Source: Candidatus Falkowbacteria bacterium
GTDB lineage: Bacteria > Patescibacteriota > Patescibacteriia > CAIXNZ01
Direction: 5' to 3'
Length of the DNA stretch: 46,236 bases
Assembly: GCA_963774955.1 (NCBI GenBank)
Contig: CAVZGV010000001.1
Location: 1-46,236 of the forward strand
Of the stretch, positions 7,311 through 27,107 are shown piece by piece; position 1 is the first letter of the stretch; every line of letters starts with the position of its first letter. A program made the position numbers and the translations under genes. The notes under the pieces were generated by a model. That model was not told where the DNA came from and did no database searches. It was given only the letters and a program-made list of their open reading frames with translations.

Positions 7311-8093
7311 CTAATTTATCATTTTGACCAAATTTTGCAAGAGCATGGCCACGGTCAGGGGACCGACGCCACCGGGAACAGGGGAACGCCAGCTAGCCTT
7401 GACATCACAGGACGGGTCAATGTCGCCAACAGTCTTACCTTCAATTTTGGAAATACCAACGTCAATTAAGACGGCATCTTTTTTGATCATGTCTGGTTTT
7501 ATATAATTAGGCTGACCGAGGGCGACGATAAGTATATCTGATTTTAGATTTTGGATTTTGGATTTTGGATTTAGGTTTTGAATATTTGAATCGGGAAGTA
7601 ATTTTATAAATGGTTTTGTGAATTCATCAGAATTTGAAAGTATTGTAACATTTTTATTTTTCAAATCAATTTTAGTTTCTTTTAGTAATTCCATAATGCC
7701 CAAGGCAGTCGGGGAAGTAAAAGGGGAATTGAGCTGAAAGCCGTCAATGTCTTTGCCGGAATCAATCGCGCTGATGATTTTATCTGTATCTAAGCCTTCA
7801 GGTAAAGGCAGTTGAACTAAAATGCCTTGAATGTCTGTATCTTTATTTAAAAATTTAATGGCTTCGATTATTTGTTCTTCTTTATATGTGGTTGGAAAGA
7901 GATAGGAACTAAAATTAATACCAGCTTCCAGACAGGCTTGCTCTTTAAGTTTAAGATAAAGTTTTGAGGCTTCGTTGTCACCAACTAAAATAGCAGCCAG
8001 ACCTGGTTGGTCGTTCATTGTAGCCACTTTGGCTTTGACTTGGGTAAGGATTTTATCGGCAAGGATTTTGCCGTTAATAAGTTGAGCTGGCAT
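7311..8093 (-). CDS. folD: FolD-like methylenetetrahydrofolate dehydrogenase/cyclohydrolase with a degenerate NADP-binding segment
   Basis: SKLYLKLKEQA, LVQLPLP, DIDGF and PVPGGVGPLTVAML are FolD motifs. Start set at MPAQLINGKILA (8093); the track's upstream extension looks non-coding. The G-R-S-x-x-V-G-x-P loop reads SNSDEFTKP, and the following strand is replaced by NIQNLNPKSKIQNLK. Confidence 0.8.
   Translation of the reverse strand: MPAQLINGKILADKILTQVKAKVATMNDQPGLAAILVGDNEASKLYLKLKEQACLEAGINFSSYLFPTTYKEEQIIEAIKFLNKDTDIQGILVQLPLPEGLDTDKIISAIDSGKDIDGFQLNSPFTSPTALGIMELLKETKIDLKNKNVTILSNSDEFTKPFIKLLPDSNIQNLNPKSKIQNLKSDILIVALGQPNYIKPDMIKKDAVLIDVGISKIEGKTVGDIDPSCDVKASWRSPVPGGVGPLTVAMLLQNLVKMIN
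7541..7582. repeat. 7-nt tandem array ATTTTGG (3 perfect plus 3 degenerate units) inside the folD coding sequence
   Basis: attttag attttgg attttgg attttgg atttagg ttttgaa. On the coding strand this encodes ...NLNPKSKIQNLK.... It shares the word AGATTTTGGAT with the 4654-4702 palindrome. Confidence 0.85.
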
Positions 8094-8233
8094 AATGTTA
8101 TGTAAGGATAAAAAACCCACTTTGTCTGTTACGATATTTAAGAGAAGTGCGAAGTATGTGGGTGTAATGGATTCCACGCTTCGCTCTGAATGACAAAGTG
8201 TGTTTTTATCGTCAAAAATTAGCGTTATTCGCG

Positions 8234-22790: not shown

Positions 22791-24761
22791 ATGAGAAGAA
22801 AAGCAGATAAACTTCAGGAGTTGATGAAAATTCCCGGCTTGTTGAAAGAAATCTTGGAAACCAGTGTTCAGGGCATTATCATTTTAAGACACGACAAAAA
22901 AACACTTACGACCGTGACTTTTTATGCCAATGAGCGGGCAGGAACGATTATCGGGGTTAAGGCTTCTGATCTGATTGACATTGATCCTGCCGAATATCTT
23001 CATCCAGAAGATGACAAAGTGGCGCAAATTGAGCTCTACACCAAAGTTTTGACGGGACAGTCAGTCGAGATGGGCCTGAAATTACTACCTCATGACGGCC
23101 TCAATCGTTCCATCAAAGTTATGATGGAAAGAATCAGCCAGACTGAGACAGAATCTTACGTTCTTTGTCTCCTGACTGATTTATCCGAACAGGAAGAGTC
23201 CAACTTTAAACTGAAACAAAACGAGAAGTTTTTCCGAAATTTTTTGGAAAGACTGCCAGCTTTAGTTTTTGTTTTGGAGGATGACGGCACTATCAGTTAT
23301 GCTAATCAGGCAGCGGTGAAGCTGACTGGTTATAGTTCAGAACCAATTGGCAGACTGAATGTCATGTCCATCCTTGATAGAGATGGGCAGATACTGCTCC
23401 TCCAAACAAGACAAGAACTGGATGAAGGTAAAAGTCCCGGCATTAAACCTTTCAAAATCAAAACTGTCAACGGTGATTATATCCCCGTCGACGGTACGGC
23501 TGTAACTCTGATAGTCGGTTCGGTGGTAAAGTTCGTGGGGATAGCGGTCGATGTCAGTGGCAGGATCGAGGCGGAACAGGAACGAGAAAAGATGCGACTG
23601 AAACTTATTCAAACCCAAAAGTTTGAAAGTTTGGGGGTAATGGCCGGCGGGGTTGCTCATGATTTTAATAATATCCTGACCGGAGTCCGCGGCTATCTTG
23701 GCTTGGCTCAACGAACCATACCGTCCGACAGTTCTTCGCAAAAACATCTGCAGTCGATTGATGACCTGATCATCAAATTAACCGATCTGGCCAACCAGAT
23801 GATGGTCTACGCGGGAATCCGTAAGTTCAGCATCAAATCTTTTCATTTTAATGAGCTTATCAAGGATATGGTGCTGATGCTGCAGAGTTCGATTTCTAAA
23901 AAAACGAATTTGCGGCTTAATCTGGAACCTCATCTGCCGTTTATTACCGGTGACATCACTCAGGTTCGTCAGGTAATTATGAATCTGGTTATCAATGCTT
24001 CTGAAGCCTGTGGGACCAACACCGGTGATATTCTGGTTTCGACCAAAAAAGTTTGGTTGCCTGAATCTTCAAAGCATCTGCTTCCGGAACAGATTGTTGC
24101 CGGAGATTACATTTTGCTCGAAATAACTGATACCGGCTGCGGCATGGATGCGGAAACTCTGCATAAAATGTTCGATCCCTTTTTCAGTACCAAGTTTACT
24201 GGCCGAGGCCTTGGGCTGGCCGCTGTTTTGGGAATTATTAAAGGGCATCGCGGCGGCATTAATGTTTATAGCGTGCCCGGGCAGGGAACTACAATTAAAG
24301 TATATTTCCCTGTTTTAGAAGAAAATCAATCTCTGCCGGCTGTAGATTCCGAGGTCTCGCAGACCGAATTTCAGATAAAACGGCGGCTGTCCGGTAAAAC
24401 AATACTGGTAGTTGATGATGAGATGGTTATTCGCGACACCTTCAGCCAGTATTTGTTTTTATACGGTTGCGAAGTTTTAGTTGCTGAAGACGGCTTAGCA
24501 GGTCTGGCCATGTACTTAAAGTATTGCGACAAGATTGATGTAGTGATCTTGGACCTGACTATGCCAAATCTCAGCGGCAAAGAAGTTCTCATTGAAATCA
24601 AAAAGCGGAATCCTCTCGTTAAAATCATTTTAATGAGTGGTTGGGCTGAGGAAGAGGCTTTGAAAAGCTTCAGGCATGGGGATGTGGCTGCTTTTATGCC
24701 CAAGCCGCCAATCTTCGAGGACTTGATAGCAAAATTGCTGGAAGTCCTGGGTGCCAACTAA
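22791..24761 (+). CDS. Hybrid sensor histidine kinase (PAS - PAS - HisKA - HATPase_c - receiver)
   Basis: H-box GGVAHDFNNILT, N-box VIMNLVINASEA, G1 DTGCGMD, G2 GRGLGLA. C-terminal receiver ILVVDDE...DLTMPNLSG...K. AGGAGG Shine-Dalgarno. Confidence 0.88.
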   Translation: MRRKADKLQELMKIPGLLKEILETSVQGIIILRHDKKTLTTVTFYANERAGTIIGVKASDLIDIDPAEYLHPEDDKVAQIELYTKVLTGQSVEMGLKLLPHDGLNRSIKVMMERISQTETESYVLCLLTDLSEQEESNFKLKQNEKFFRNFLERLPALVFVLEDDGTISYANQAAVKLTGYSSEPIGRLNVMSILDRDGQILLLQTRQELDEGKSPGIKPFKIKTVNGDYIPVDGTAVTLIVGSVVKFVGIAVDVSGRIEAEQEREKMRLKLIQTQKFESLGVMAGGVAHDFNNILTGVRGYLGLAQRTIPSDSSSQKHLQSIDDLIIKLTDLANQMMVYAGIRKFSIKSFHFNELIKDMVLMLQSSISKKTNLRLNLEPHLPFITGDITQVRQVIMNLVINASEACGTNTGDILVSTKKVWLPESSKHLLPEQIVAGDYILLEITDTGCGMDAETLHKMFDPFFSTKFTGRGLGLAAVLGIIKGHRGGINVYSVPGQGTTIKVYFPVLEENQSLPAVDSEVSQTEFQIKRRLSGKTILVVDDEMVIRDTFSQYLFLYGCEVLVAEDGLAGLAMYLKYCDKIDVVILDLTMPNLSGKEVLIEIKKRNPLVKIILMSGWAEEEALKSFRHGDVAAFMPKPPIFEDLIAKLLEVLGAN

Positions 24762-24769
24762 ATTTAAAT

Positions 24770-24796
24770 CGGATCAGGGAACTGGTCCGGTTTTTT
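24770..24796 (+). terminator. Rho-independent terminator of the kinase gene
   Basis: 8-bp stem CGGATCAG/CTGGTCCG (one G-U pair), GGAA loop, T6. Confidence 0.75.
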
Positions 24797-24798
24797 AA

Positions 24799-24827
24799 TT
24801 GACTAATAGTCAATGATTTTGTATAAT
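24799..24827 (+). promoter_or_regulatory. Sigma70-type promoter TTGACT-N17-TATAAT for gatC
   Basis: TTGACTaatagtcaatgattttgTATAAT. Confidence 0.6.
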
Positions 24828-24845
24828 ATTAGTAAATTTAATTAT

Positions 24846-25130
24846 ATGAAGCTATCAAAAGCAGAAGTCGAAAAAATTGCCAAGCTTTCCAGGCTTGAAT
24901 TAACCGAGTCAGAAAAGGATAAATTTGCTGACCAAATGTCGGCTGTTTTAGATTATGTCGGCAAACTGGAAAAGGTTAATACTGATAATGTGGAAATGAC
25001 TGCGCAAGTTACCGGGCTGGAAAATGTGTATAGAGAAGATAAGGCTGAGCAGTGTGATTATCAGGAGGATTTGGTTAAACAAGCCGCAGAACACGAGGAT
25101 AATCTGATTAAGACTAAGTCTGTGTTCTAA
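24846..25130 (+). CDS. gatC: Glu/Asp-tRNA amidotransferase subunit C
   Basis: MKLSKAEVEKIAKLSRLELTESEKDKF...LDYV..L..V is the GatC pattern. The ATG at 24813 in the ORF track lies inside the promoter. Confidence 0.88.
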   Translation: MKLSKAEVEKIAKLSRLELTESEKDKFADQMSAVLDYVGKLEKVNTDNVEMTAQVTGLENVYREDKAEQCDYQEDLVKQAAEHEDNLIKTKSVF

Positions 25131-25180
25131 GGTTGTATGAAGTTCTATTGGGTTGTATTAGGTTATATAAAGTTGCAAGT
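25131..25180 (+). repeat. Left array: 5 units of a 10-nt word (ggttgtatga / agttctattg / ggttgtatta / ggttatataa / agttgcaagt)
   Basis: Starts at the nucleotide after the gatC stop, with an exact 10-nt phase. Confidence 0.85.
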
Positions 25181-25189
25181 TTAATAAAT

Positions 25190-25720
25190 ATGAAAATAGA
25201 AACAAACATGTACCAGGCTCCTTACGAAAAATTAATTGTATATAAACAAATTTGTGAATTGCGAAAGCTTATATATAAATATACTGTGCCATTTGCCAGG
25301 TCTGAACCACGTCGTGCATCGCAAATGAGGGATGCTTCCAGATCCGCAAAACAAAATTTTAAAGAAGGTTATCAAAGAGGGTCAATACGAATTTTTATTA
25401 ATTCTTGCAAAATAAGCTATGGGTCGTTGGAAGAGTTGATAGGCGATATAGATGATTGTAATGAGGATGGATTATTCAGCCTAGAAATCTACAATTTACT
25501 GAATGATTTAGCTAAGAAAACCCATTATTTACTAAATAATTATATCCAATCTTTATATAAAATAGAAAAAGAGGGAACTTGGAAAGTTATTCACCCCAAA
25601 AGCAACCTAATAAAACTTCATAAACCATCATATAACCTCATAAAACCACATGGACTTAAACCAACTAACAATCAAACAAGCCACTCAGATGCTAAACAAG
25701 AAAGAGATTTCCAGTACTGA
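25190..25720 (+). CDS. Four-helix-bundle protein (23S rRNA intervening-sequence protein family)
   Basis: YKQICELRKLIYKYT..F...EPRRASQMRDASRSAKQNFKEGY.RGS...FINSCKISYGSLEEL is the family pattern. The C-terminal about 40 aa is read-through of the right array and overlaps gatA by 71 nt, so the true end is uncertain. Confidence 0.75.
   Translation: MKIETNMYQAPYEKLIVYKQICELRKLIYKYTVPFARSEPRRASQMRDASRSAKQNFKEGYQRGSIRIFINSCKISYGSLEELIGDIDDCNEDGLFSLEIYNLLNDLAKKTHYLLNNYIQSLYKIEKEGTWKVIHPKSNLIKLHKPSYNLIKPHGLKPTNNQTSHSDAKQERDFQY
25601..25650 (+). repeat. Right array: about 5 units of the reverse-complement 10-nt word (taaaacttca / taaaccatca / tataacctca / taaaaccaca)
   Basis: The reverse complement (tgaagtttta, tgatggttta, tgaggttata...) matches the left-array consensus TATGANGTTNTA. 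The array decays into the first gatA codons. Confidence 0.85.
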
Positions 25721-27107
25721 CTTGGTCAAAGATTGCATTAAACGCATTGCCAAGACTGATAAAAAAGTCCATGCTTTTTTGAATACAAATTTTGAACAAG
25801 CGCAAAGTGCTGCCAAGGAGGTGGATAAGAAGATAAAAAAAGGCGAACACTTAAATACATTAGAGGGAATTCCTTGTGGTATTAAAGACTTGATTTTAAC
25901 CGAAGGTATTGTGACGACAGCCTCATCTAAAATGTTACAGAATTATAAGCCTTTATTTGACGCCACGGTTATAAAAAAACTTAAGGAAAATGGGGCAATT
26001 ATACTGGGTAAACATAATTGTGATGCCTGGGGACATGGGTCATCAACTGAAAATTCAGATTATGGTCCCAGTCATAACCCTTGGGATTTGGAACGTGTTC
26101 CGGGCGGTTCTTCCGGCGGTAGCGCGGCCAGTGTAGCAGCTGATCAAGTTATTTATTCATTAGGTACTGATACTGGCGGTTCAATCCGTCATCCTTCCAG
26201 TTTATGCGGCGTAGTCGGGTTGAAACCAACTTATGGCCGGGTTTCCCGTTTTGGCGCCATTGCTATGGGATCTTCTTTAGATCAAATCGGACCGATAACC
26301 AAGACAGTAGAGGATGCTGCCATTATTATGAATGTAATATCAGGTATAGATAAACTGGACGGAACCTCCGTGCCCAAGCCTGTTCCTGATTATACCAAAA
26401 ATTTACAGCAGGGAATTAAGGGCCTGAAAATTGGGGTGCCCAAGGAAGCTTTTGTTGAAGGCCTAGATCCTGAAGTTAAACAGCTGATTCAGCTTGCGAT
26501 TAGAGATATGGAAAAGGAGGGAGCTGAGATTCAGGAAGTTTCCTTGCAGACTTTACCTTATGGTTTGGCTTGTTATTACATAATTATGCCCTCAGAAGTT
26601 AGTTCCAATCTGGGCCGATATGATGGCATCCGTTACGGTTATCAGGATAAAGACGCCAAAGATCTGTTTGAAATTTATACCAAGTCCCGAGCCAAGGGTT
26701 TTGGCGCTGAAGCTAAACGCAGAATCATGATCGGTACATATGTTCTTTCCGCCGGTTATTATGATGCTTATTATAAAAAAGCCATGCGCGTCAGAACTTT
26801 GATCAAGCAGGAATTTGATAATGTTTTCAATAATGTTGACTTGTTATTAATGCCGACTTCACCGCGGCCAGCCTTTAAAATAGGGGAGAATATCAATGAT
26901 CCTTTGACTATGTACTTGGAAGATATTTATACTGTAACCATTAACTTGGCAGGAGTGCCTGCAATTTCCGTGCCTTGTGGATATATAAATAATTTACCGG
27001 TGGGCATGCAGTTAATTGGTAATCAGTTTGATGAAGAAACGATTTTCCGCGCCGCGTATGCGTATGAGCAGGCAAACGGCTGGAATAAAATTAAACCCAA
27101 ACTATAA
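25650..27107 (+). CDS. gatA: Glu/Asp-tRNA amidotransferase subunit A
   Basis: Amidase signature GGSSGGSAASVAA...GTDTGGSIR; full-length GatA pattern. Confidence 0.95.
   Translation: MDLNQLTIKQATQMLNKKEISSTDLVKDCIKRIAKTDKKVHAFLNTNFEQAQSAAKEVDKKIKKGEHLNTLEGIPCGIKDLILTEGIVTTASSKMLQNYKPLFDATVIKKLKENGAIILGKHNCDAWGHGSSTENSDYGPSHNPWDLERVPGGSSGGSAASVAADQVIYSLGTDTGGSIRHPSSLCGVVGLKPTYGRVSRFGAIAMGSSLDQIGPITKTVEDAAIIMNVISGIDKLDGTSVPKPVPDYTKNLQQGIKGLKIGVPKEAFVEGLDPEVKQLIQLAIRDMEKEGAEIQEVSLQTLPYGLACYYIIMPSEVSSNLGRYDGIRYGYQDKDAKDLFEIYTKSRAKGFGAEAKRRIMIGTYVLSAGYYDAYYKKAMRVRTLIKQEFDNVFNNVDLLLMPTSPRPAFKIGENINDPLTMYLEDIYTVTINLAGVPAISVPCGYINNLPVGMQLIGNQFDEETIFRAAYAYEQANGWNKIKPKL

Follow-up and report, generated by a model that had tools for sequence, protein, structure and literature searches.

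A four-helix-bundle gene between gatC and gatA of a Candidatus Falkowbacteria bacterium is flanked by inverted arrays of a 10-nt word, an arrangement shared across its gene family

In the intervening sequences (IVSs) of rRNA genes described for Coxiella, Leptospira and the Xanthomonas type, an open reading frame (ORF) for an S23p/four-helix-bundle (4HB) protein lies in the loop between complementary termini, which are cut by RNase III (PMC4990558). Avd, a protein of diversity-generating retroelements (DGRs), forms a pentamer which binds a particular RNA element adjacent to the gene for Avd, and in the DGR RNA complementarity is also used between the sequences on either side of the core (bioRxiv 10.1101/2023.10.23.563531). 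Genes annotated as 23S_rRNA_IVP were reported inside cas operons and treated as candidates for a Cas-associated function, with their flanking repeats undescribed (PMC3936711). ORF-bearing IVSs, Avd and the scatter of the 4HB family in cas operons and in rRNA insertions of the candidate phyla radiation (CPR) are already known (PMC4990558, PMC3936711, bioRxiv 10.1101/2024.02.27.582315). Here we analyzed a stretch of 46,236 nt from a Candidatus Falkowbacteria bacterium (contig CAVZGV010000001.1), called the window in the following, in which a gene of this family lies between gatC and gatA and is flanked by two arrays of a 10-nt word in opposite orientation. To our knowledge, no function is known for the 4HB/23S rRNA IVS protein family apart from Avd in DGRs, and the scatter of the family over rRNA genes, cas operons and housekeeping operons was noted before without an explanation. 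The main point of the analysis, missed by an earlier note on the segment (25131-25720), is that inverted periodic arrays are a family-wide property of these genes and not a local curiosity. On balance, we favor the reading that the segment represents one copy of an IVS-like cassette that is widespread, resides in operons and has the arrays as functional ends, probably read by its own 4HB protein. In the literature we found no description of shared periodic inverted arrays, sense-in-operon placement, ORF-less doublets or an extension to XCC0516; the coverage was incomplete and a prior description is possible.

The left array (25131-25176, + strand) begins directly after the gatC stop codon and consists of four 10-nt units of the word GGTTNTATNA (25131-25170), in order GGTTGTATGA, AGTTCTATTG, GGTTGTATTA and GGTTATATAA, followed by the inner half-word AGTTGC (25171-25176). 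The right array (25602-25647, + strand) starts with the inner half-word GCAACC (25602-25607) and continues with four units of TNATANAACN (25608-25647), the reverse complement of the left-array word, in the order TAATAAAACT, TCATAAACCA, TCATATAACC and TCATAAAACC. It is followed by the two nucleotides AC and the gatA ATG at 25650. The earlier note had counted five phased units on the left and about five reverse-complement units ending at the gatA ATG. The left starting point and the orientation of the right units were correct, and on both sides the count comes down to four full units and a half-word, with the right array ending 2 nt before the ATG. It had also doubted that the arms are properly nested (order A-B on the left and A'-B' on the right), a doubt which arose since the units are all alike; the two arrays are in fact mirror-symmetric, each with four full units and a GGTTGC-type half-unit, and pair at 35 of 46 nested positions.

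Both arrays were recovered with period 10 by Tandem Repeats Finder (TRF), which detected no ORF-less array doublets elsewhere in the window. A three-unit pattern with up to two mismatches gave 6 matches in the window, all of them within the two arrays, where 0.01 would be expected; the single-unit word occurs 14 times on both strands of the window, 7 times within the element. In a genome of 38% G+C (window value), A/T-rich spacers yield many weak repeats, and the arrays could be taken for chance low-complexity sequence beside an unrelated small ORF. This explanation has practically no probability left: besides the pattern statistics, the conservation of the arrays in nine orthologues and the family-wide TRF counts, with the same architecture in about 90% of related loci, rule it out.

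A scan with the family alignment, using one genome per species, returned 80 loci, and the array counts cover 69 left and 70 right flanks. The loci belong to Omnitrophota, Planctomycetota, Bacteroidota, Ignavibacteriales, Margulisiibacteriota, Saccharibacteria, Parcubacteria and other taxa, with CPR bacteria among them. The layout is nearly universal, with a 5' array built on the core GGTT(A/G/T)(C/A), or GGGTTAG in a more distant subgroup, and its reverse complement at the 3' side. Arrays of 9-11 nt were detected by TRF in 64 of the 69 left flanks and 62 of the 70 right flanks; control segments 1 kb away contained arrays in 14/70 and 14/63 cases, and several of these are further arrays of the same kind. 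About 83% of the arrays have period 10 and about 14% period 9. The modal copy number is five (54 of 126 arrays), 4-6 copies are found in 89 of 126, and array length has a median of 49 nt. In 51 of 56 loci the period is the same on both sides. Some genomes carry two word types, each with its own protein subtype (locus pairs L057 and L071, L035 and L069, L014 and L077).

The cassettes are co-stranded with the upstream gene in 63 of 66 loci and with the downstream gene in 63 of 67 (about 95%). The left array starts a median of 3 nt past the upstream stop codon and ends about 15 nt 5' of the 4HB start, while the right array sets in at the 4HB stop codon or overlaps it (median -2.5 nt) and ends a median of 18 nt before the next ATG; by inspection, several of these last spacers contain GGAG-like motifs. 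Possibly no insertion point is tolerated other than the one tightly behind the upstream stop codon. A variety of operons is found around the cassettes, including gatCA, pilB/pilC-like genes, radical-SAM/glycosyltransferase pairs and response regulators. In Omnitrophota and relatives, some contexts recur, namely a radical-SAM gene, 4HB and a glycosyltransferase (L034, L040, L066), pilB-like, 4HB and pilC-like (L029, L043), and pilC-like, 4HB and pilin-like (L018, L085).

The conserved part of the 4HB gene (25208-25600, + strand) encodes 131 aa with an isoelectric point of 9.05. As the earlier note had proposed, the ORF belongs to the IVS-protein family: it reaches 53.3 bits with PF05635 (23S_rRNA_IVP; residues 13-116, cut-off 33.8) and 49.4 bits with TIGR02436 (cut-off 24), the profile named there as a check, and the predicted fold matches too. 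An AlphaFold2 monomer model (pLDDT, the predicted local distance difference test, 95.3) shows helices at residues 10-29, 34-56, 60-86 and 92-122. Foldseek matched this model to XCC0516 (2GSC; template modelling score, TM, 0.77-0.93), BT_0352 (2RLD; TM 0.68-0.87) and Avd (4DWL/8UB7; TM 0.56-0.85), and the family profile matches 2GSC at E = 4e-10. The entries 2GSC, 2RLD and 4DWL were each deposited with five chains, and XCC0516 and Avd are described as homopentamers (PMC4990558; bioRxiv 10.1101/2023.10.23.563531). The cassette protein and Avd share a homologous basic four-helix-bundle fold, although Avd is pentameric and the cassette protein was modelled as a monomer; they differ in sequence (about 7-13% identity) and in their flanks, which are periodic arrays here and not the Sp stem-loop. 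No reverse transcriptase is found among the neighbors of the cassette (histidine kinase/response regulator, gatC, gatA and amino-acid kinase); template and variable repeats (TR/VR) were not searched for.

Across 30 relatives, 21 residues of the protein are invariant, mainly polar ones, including R45, S46, K48, Q49, N50, E53, G54, Y55, E76, D80, D83, C84 and D87. A conserved polar motif of helix 2 (R...S...N..E-G) was described for the family (PMC3936711). It is present here, and S46, N50, E53 and G54 align with S-N-E-G of XCC0516. Neither the profile scans nor Foldseek revealed a nuclease or recombinase domain, and PF05635 is the sole Pfam match. None of the defense-system models of PADLOC matched the protein at E ≤ 0.01. 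The IMG/VR viral contigs, scanned with the family alignment, contained no relative and gave no sign of a phage as vehicle. The subfamily profile detects at least 6183 clusters at 50% identity.

Close homologues are 81-90% identical, mostly 130-141 aa long, and start at the ATG equivalent to 25208. In the orthologue alignment this ATG (MYQAPYEKL) is the conserved start, as opposed to the TTG at 25133 or the ATG at 25190; the latter is in frame and lies in an A-rich, poorly conserved leader (25177-25207, + strand) between the left array and the conserved start. At the other end, three aligned orthologues have their stop codon just 5' of the right array, and two (P0001, P0002) extend a few codons into it. 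Where the close relatives used for comparison, with proteins of 133-141 aa, carry the stop codon, the window has a deletion of about 18 nt. Because this deletion took out the ancestral stop codon, the ORF reads on through the right array and 71 nt into gatA (tail 25601-25720, + strand). The earlier note was correct about this course, the end at 25720 and the overlap; it is not, however, a conserved feature, since the last 40 or so residues and the gatA overlap have no counterpart among the orthologues. Judged from this alignment, the 176- or 195-aa ORF crossing the array is a lineage-specific read-through accident of no conserved meaning. By exact look-up, the 176-aa form is present on one 2.1-kb Logan contig, while the window GatA and the 195-aa ORF gave no match. 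Odd terminal extensions, e.g., LREVA, SRNLS or ATLATLATS, occur in other family proteins (P0013, P0022, P0025, P0030, P0038, P0065 and P0068). They appear to be translated flanking arrays, and thus gene-calling artefacts like the 176-aa ORF of the window, because their codons match the words GAGGTTGC and GCAACCTC.

All close homologues with readable context sit between gatC and gatA (L001/L007, L002-L005, L006, L104, L105 and L099); in L106-L108, which are cut off upstream, the 4HB gene is followed by gatA. When related gatC-gatA loci are compared, as the earlier note had suggested, both filled and cassette-less spacers are found. The spacer of L099, with a GatA 91% identical to that of the window, holds the cassette. 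In L090 (577-733), where GatA is also 91% identical, the 4HB gene is absent and the 157-nt spacer contains G+C-rich hairpins. At lower GatA identity, the spacer is occupied by an ORF-less inverted array pair of a different word (ATTTTAG/CTAAAAT, period about 8-9) in L087 (1392-1497; 75%), by 127 nt of G+C-rich sequence containing hairpins in L095 (516-642; 76%) and by an unrelated 127-aa ORF without Pfam match in L089 (1111-1494; 71%), and it measures only 29 nt in L102 (72%). In several relatives with 50-55% GatA identity, gatC and gatA abut or overlap. Presence of the cassette varies among close relatives, as expected for an inserted element. The option of a mobile cassette raised by the earlier note fits these comparative data and the finding of the same layout at dozens of operon junctions.

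The order gatC, 4HB, gatA is found again in L008 with a different word (GTTACTANNA), although GatA is only 53% and the 4HB protein 60% identical there. The junction was thus used more than once, or the cassette was exchanged. Furthermore, the array pair of L087 resembles an element of this kind reduced to the hairpin, and for small insertions in general the gatC-gatA junction seems to act as a hotspot. The spacer hairpins of L090 and L095 (e.g., AACCCCCTCTTT and AAGGAGGGGGTT) are G+C-rich, in contrast to the 38% G+C of the window, and these spacers look like a different miniature-repeat family. In L010 (2919-3455), a frameshifted pseudogene copy of the 4HB gene has a stop after 33 codons; gatC, gatA and both arrays are retained, and two units of the left array have lost the GGTT core (TCCT and GGCT).

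Related arrangements were observed in other, independent lineages. In Xanthomonas, Rhodanobacter and Dyella, the gene between accB and accC is an orthologue of XCC0516, whose crystal structure (2GSC) makes it the archetype of the family (L110 in X. arboricola, LR877306.1, 2484-2933; further Xanthomonadales loci L111-L118). The arms in X. arboricola, GGGAATCGGGAGTGGAGAATCGGGAATCGG and CCCATTCCCCATTCTCGACTCCCTATTCCC, are 30 nt long, 87% complementary and built from the word GGGAATCGG. The left arm begins 6 nt past the accB stop codon, the 4HB start codon falls inside the left array, and the right arm finishes exactly at the accC ATG. Between the genera the word was switched in concert in all copies of both arms, with GGGAATC/GATTCCC in Xanthomonas and Dyella and GGGATTC/GAATCCC in Rhodanobacter. 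In the predicted Xanthomonas folds the arms are paired on both strands (z = -5.1 sense, -6.5 antisense). From this distribution, some junctions such as accB-accC look stably inherited. On a plasmid of Pseudanabaena galeata (NZ_CP112875.1; L109, 2260-2960), a 31%-identical relative lies between cas6 and cas4 of a type I-D operon. Like the cas-operon 23S_rRNA_IVP genes in general, it is intercalated between co-oriented genes of a conserved operon, and it is array-flanked, with about 14 copies of CTAAAAG on the upstream side, about 10 of CCAAAAG on the downstream side and inverted copies of GCTTTTAG further upstream. Unlike those of the window, these arrays repeat every 7 nt and are partly arranged as direct repeats. 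They resemble the heptameric short tandemly repeated repetitive (STRR) sequences of cyanobacteria.

Retention at accB-accC across Xanthomonadales genera could also point to a host regulatory module, in which a domesticated 4HB regulator binds operator-like arrays and tunes the downstream essential gene (gatA or accC). The ORF is under purifying selection, its product is basic, and the right arm ends at or beside the downstream start codon, as would suit such a regulator. We consider it very unlikely, since the operons around the cassettes have no function in common (gatCA, accBC, pilus genes, glycosyltransferases and cas genes), close relatives manage without a cassette, ORF-less copies exist and one orthologue is pseudogenised with intact neighbors.

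The ORF-less copies bear on another alternative as well. Inverted pairs of the same words without an ORF were found in the same contigs as 4HB cassettes (L066, 3682-3786 and 4511-4617; L071, 5813-5913; L057, 5056-5248), and also in the contigs of L063, L032 and L017. In addition, L017 contains at 1880-1986 an ORF-less hairpin of a quite different 10-nt word (GAAATTTNTA... / ...AAATTTC) beside a 4HB cassette with GGTTAC words; from this example, the class of hairpins with periodic words may extend beyond the GGTT type. REPIN-RAYT systems combine a protein gene flanked by inverted repeats with ORF-less hairpin doublets, which are scattered in the intergenic spaces of the same genome (PMC3116915, PMC3337134). 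The cassettes are similar in the single gene with inverted flanks, the ORF-less doublets in the contigs of relatives, a residence that looks long and mostly vertical, and the concerted repeats. They are different in that the 4HB protein has no HUH or tyrosine-transposase motifs and is no RAYT, and in that tandem arrays of 9-10-nt words replace single REP palindromes.

By analogy, the arrays could be the terminal inverted repeats of a DNA-level mobile element, made of tandem binding sites for recombination or transposition, with the 4HB protein as end-binder or cargo and RNA pairing as an incidental property. The sense orientation would then merely reflect the need of a promoterless gene for read-through transcription, which explains it equally well. 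Such an element would account for the opposite orientation of one word on the two flanks, which one would expect if a protein reads double-stranded DNA, for same-word doublets within one contig, comparable to REPINs near their RAYT gene (PMC3116915), for the presence/absence polymorphism and repeated use of the gatC-gatA junction, for the concerted evolution of the word within an element and for Xanthomonas folds without strand preference. Nevertheless, no nuclease or recombinase domain was detected in the 4HB protein, target-site duplications and recent duplicate copies were not seen, the accB-accC junction looks stably inherited across genera, the 9-nt period of about 14% of the arrays loses helical phase on B-DNA, and IMG/VR viral contigs contain no related gene. 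We regard the DNA-level element as a possible, if rather doubtful, explanation.

For the arms as RNA, the nested register of the window gives 33 Watson-Crick and 2 G-U pairs over the 46 positions. The duplex energy of the arms is -40.3 kcal/mol, in comparison to -20.7 ± 3.8 kcal/mol for shuffled arms, so that their complementarity exceeds shuffled controls, as the earlier note had expected; their lead over the best of about 2300 other window segments of 85 nt, at -40.2 kcal/mol, is marginal. Folding of the element, also proposed there, gave a mixed result: the arms are paired in the minimum free energy (MFE) and centroid structures, and the fold of the whole element is nonetheless unexceptional (z = -1.6). 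Among 44 elements, the best left-right register is 0.76 identical, compared with 0.69 between units within an array and 0.60 in other in-phase registers. In the family of the window itself, non-partner in-phase registers (0.72-0.78) are nearly as good as the best one (0.74-0.80), and a unique stem register was rejected on these grounds.

The mean pairwise identity of the arrays in seven orthologues is 84% (left) and 86% (right), similar to the 85% of gatA codon positions 1 and 2, and third positions reach 49-53%. In nine orthologues, 25 of the 46 nested pairs are invariant, and in only 2 have both partners changed; the variable array columns are word positions 1, 5 and 9, which are mostly unpaired. 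The covariation score of 0.051 is below the shuffle mean of 0.072, and it is equalled or exceeded in 497 of 500 shuffles. Because the arrays are 84-86% conserved against about 50% at third codon or synonymous sites, selection appears to act on the word sequence itself and not merely on the pairing between the arms. The complementarity of the arms would then be largely a consequence of the same word in opposite orientation. A conserved word without compensation is the signature one would expect of a sequence-specific reader, not of a stem kept by pairing alone. The suggestion of the earlier note that a selected RNA stem separates the gatC and gatA messages was not borne out, given the invariant pairs, the lack of covariation and a left-right complementarity (0.76) about as high as the shared word gives within an array (0.69).

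A pure RNA-processing module would have arrays that only form a stem, at which RNase III separates the gatC and gatA messages and frees the 4HB mRNA, with the periodicity as a by-product of slippage. There is a precedent: IVSs with the same gene family are cut out by RNase III at the terminal stem (PMC4990558). The arms are paired in MFE and centroid folds, about 95% of the loci are in sense orientation, the word was switched in concert between Xanthomonadales genera with complementarity kept, and the sense strand shows an excess of G-U pairs. In the related loci, G-U-compatible mismatches of the sense strand number 165 against 100, which is a modest excess, and the sense-strand duplex is the more stable one in 47 of 66 loci (p = 5.5e-5). 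However, a stem requires complementarity alone, and would leave unexplained why the word is as conserved as described above and its GGTT core recurs across phyla. Variable positions are uncompensated, mismatches occupy the same positions of every unit, left and right arm lengths vary independently, the stem of the window is thermodynamically marginal, and the intactness of the 4HB ORF is not accounted for. A module of this kind is therefore unlikely.

Under the favored reading, the cassette would have entered between gatC and gatA in an ancestor shared by a small clade of Parcubacteria and would now be co-transcribed with gatC and gatA from a promoter-like site (24799-24827). The arrays would be its functional ends, each typically with about five copies of a lineage-specific word of 9-10 nt. 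The most economical reader of these words would be the cassette's own multimeric, basic 4HB protein, because its relatives are five-chain or pentameric and Avd binds nucleic acid. Words in opposite orientation would let the flanks fold back in the operon transcript, with the cassette looped out as in an rRNA IVS, and RNase III or ribosomes might act on this fold. Its base would hold the gatC stop and the gatA start, so that the host operon could tolerate the insertion. An involvement of RNA is favored by the sense orientation, the G-U excess, the precedent of the rRNA IVSs and the RNA binding of Avd. Going by sequence comparison, we would rank an RNA fold-back with protein reading first, followed by a DNA-end model and, in third place, a bare RNase III stem. 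Translational coupling across the looped-out cassette was considered and rejected; it fits the window and Xanthomonas, while in most other loci the right array is set off from the next ATG, by a median of 18 nt. A likeness of GTAACC/GGTTGG to the 3' end of 16S rRNA (helix 45) was judged too short for meaning.

Several observations weigh against the favored reading. Neither a transposase nor target-site duplications nor near-identical copies within one genome were seen. In the window, alternative in-phase registers pair about equally well, as the units are all alike, and the predicted stem is weak, with 3-bp A/U helices broken by mismatches; compensatory changes in the arms do not exceed chance in the nine orthologues. 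Copy numbers of left and right arrays are uncorrelated (rho = 0.05). The dominant part of the G-U excess is a single class of mismatch (left G : right T, 131), and the excess could reflect one recurrent position, the inner GGTTGC against GTAACC; it could also stem partly from transcription-associated mutation bias. Because four-fold degenerate sites show a T>A skew, one class is dominant and the antisense fold of Xanthomonas is at least as stable as the sense fold, the asymmetry is not decisive for RNA pairing. Finally, only about 3 words, at a period of 8-11, make up an array in Xanthomonadales, and the geometry in Pseudanabaena differs from the 10-nt inverted arrays, which both weaken a rule of one word per pentamer subunit.

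This rule is part of a wider proposal, which we put forward tentatively and hold to be rather unlikely as a whole. PF05635 proteins would be sequence-specific array readers, and gene and arrays together a transposase-free selfish unit of operon junctions and rRNA helices, ancestral to the ORF-bearing IVSs. Fold-back arms would tie the expression of the neighboring essential gene to the cassette protein, and five words would mirror the pentamer. It is a speculation that each subunit takes one word; the modal five copies agree with it, and arrays of about 3 words, of 7-15 copies or of 7-nt words disagree.

Compared with the rRNA IVSs, the cassette has the same gene family, an ORF in the loop between complementary termini, a sense position in a transcribed and tolerant site, a sporadic distribution among relatives (L099 with and L090 without it, both at 91% GatA identity) and ORF-less versions. 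It differs in its host site, which is the spacer of an mRNA operon and not a 16S or 23S rRNA helix, and in its arms, which are periodic 10-nt words with regular mismatches, whereas the Coxiella stem is nearly perfect over 28 bp. The foldback (FB) transposons of Drosophila have terminal inverted repeats of tandem short units with 10-, 20- and 31-bp periodicities. They share arms of variable, unequal length and a loop with or without coding sequence; unlike the cassette, they are eukaryotic, kilobase-scale and transposase-dependent, and there is neither homology nor an operon context. In parC of plasmid R1, two sets of five 11-bp repeats are read cooperatively by ParR, a small multimeric protein encoded next to them. 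The cassette is similar in having two repeat clusters, each of about five copies spaced by a helical turn; the parC repeats, in contrast, are in direct orientation on either side of a promoter and function in partition, and ParR is a ribbon-helix-helix dimer.

The closest database relatives of the window are Parcubacteria assemblies. The gene gatC (24846-25130, + strand; 94 aa; stop codon 25128-25130) reaches 84.9 bits with TIGR00135 and 63 bits with PF02686, and gatA (25650-27107, + strand; 485 aa) 624 bits with TIGR00132 and 494 bits with PF01425; the spacer between them measures 519 nt. Upstream, a histidine-kinase ORF (22791-24761; domains HATPase_c, Response_reg and PAS) is followed by a terminator-like hairpin with a T-run (24766-24793, + strand; 12-pair stem, then TTTAATTG), which closes its transcription unit. 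The promoter-like site TTGACT-17-TATAAT (24799-24827, + strand) agrees with 11 of 12 consensus positions and is the sole good sigma-70-type match 5' of gatC, so the transcript of gatC, 4HB and gatA likely starts there. One weak match (9/12; 25076-25103) within gatC is the other promoter-like site on the + strand before gatA, and one terminator-like site was found within gatC on the same strand. The + strand of the cassette interior contains neither promoter-like nor terminator-like sites. Motifs of the Shine-Dalgarno type (GGAG, GAGG or AGGA, up to about 22 nt 5' of the start) are rare, with 3 of 30 window genes, and the leaders are A/T-rich; because of this, their lack before the 4HB gene and gatA is normal here. 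Rfam gave no match at 24700-25900, even at E ≤ 1. A further tandem repeat of the window, GATTTTG in six copies at 7540-7580 (7 nt; TRF score 61), lies within or beside a minus-strand ORF (7311-8177) and is unrelated to the cassette word.

For the family, the arrays, the sense-in-operon placement and the ORF-less derivatives turn a scatter of genes into a definable genetic element. The own flanking word of each cassette is a testable ligand for its 4HB protein, and mRNA-borne cassettes are linked to the 30-year-old puzzle of the IVSs. Since XCC0516 shares the architecture, the hypothesis can be tested in Xanthomonas, which is cultivable and genetically tractable. There are consequences for annotation, too: predicted proteins often carry false extensions at the N- or C-terminus, in the window included, because gene callers read into the arrays, and screens for CRISPR association may collect such cassettes as passengers.

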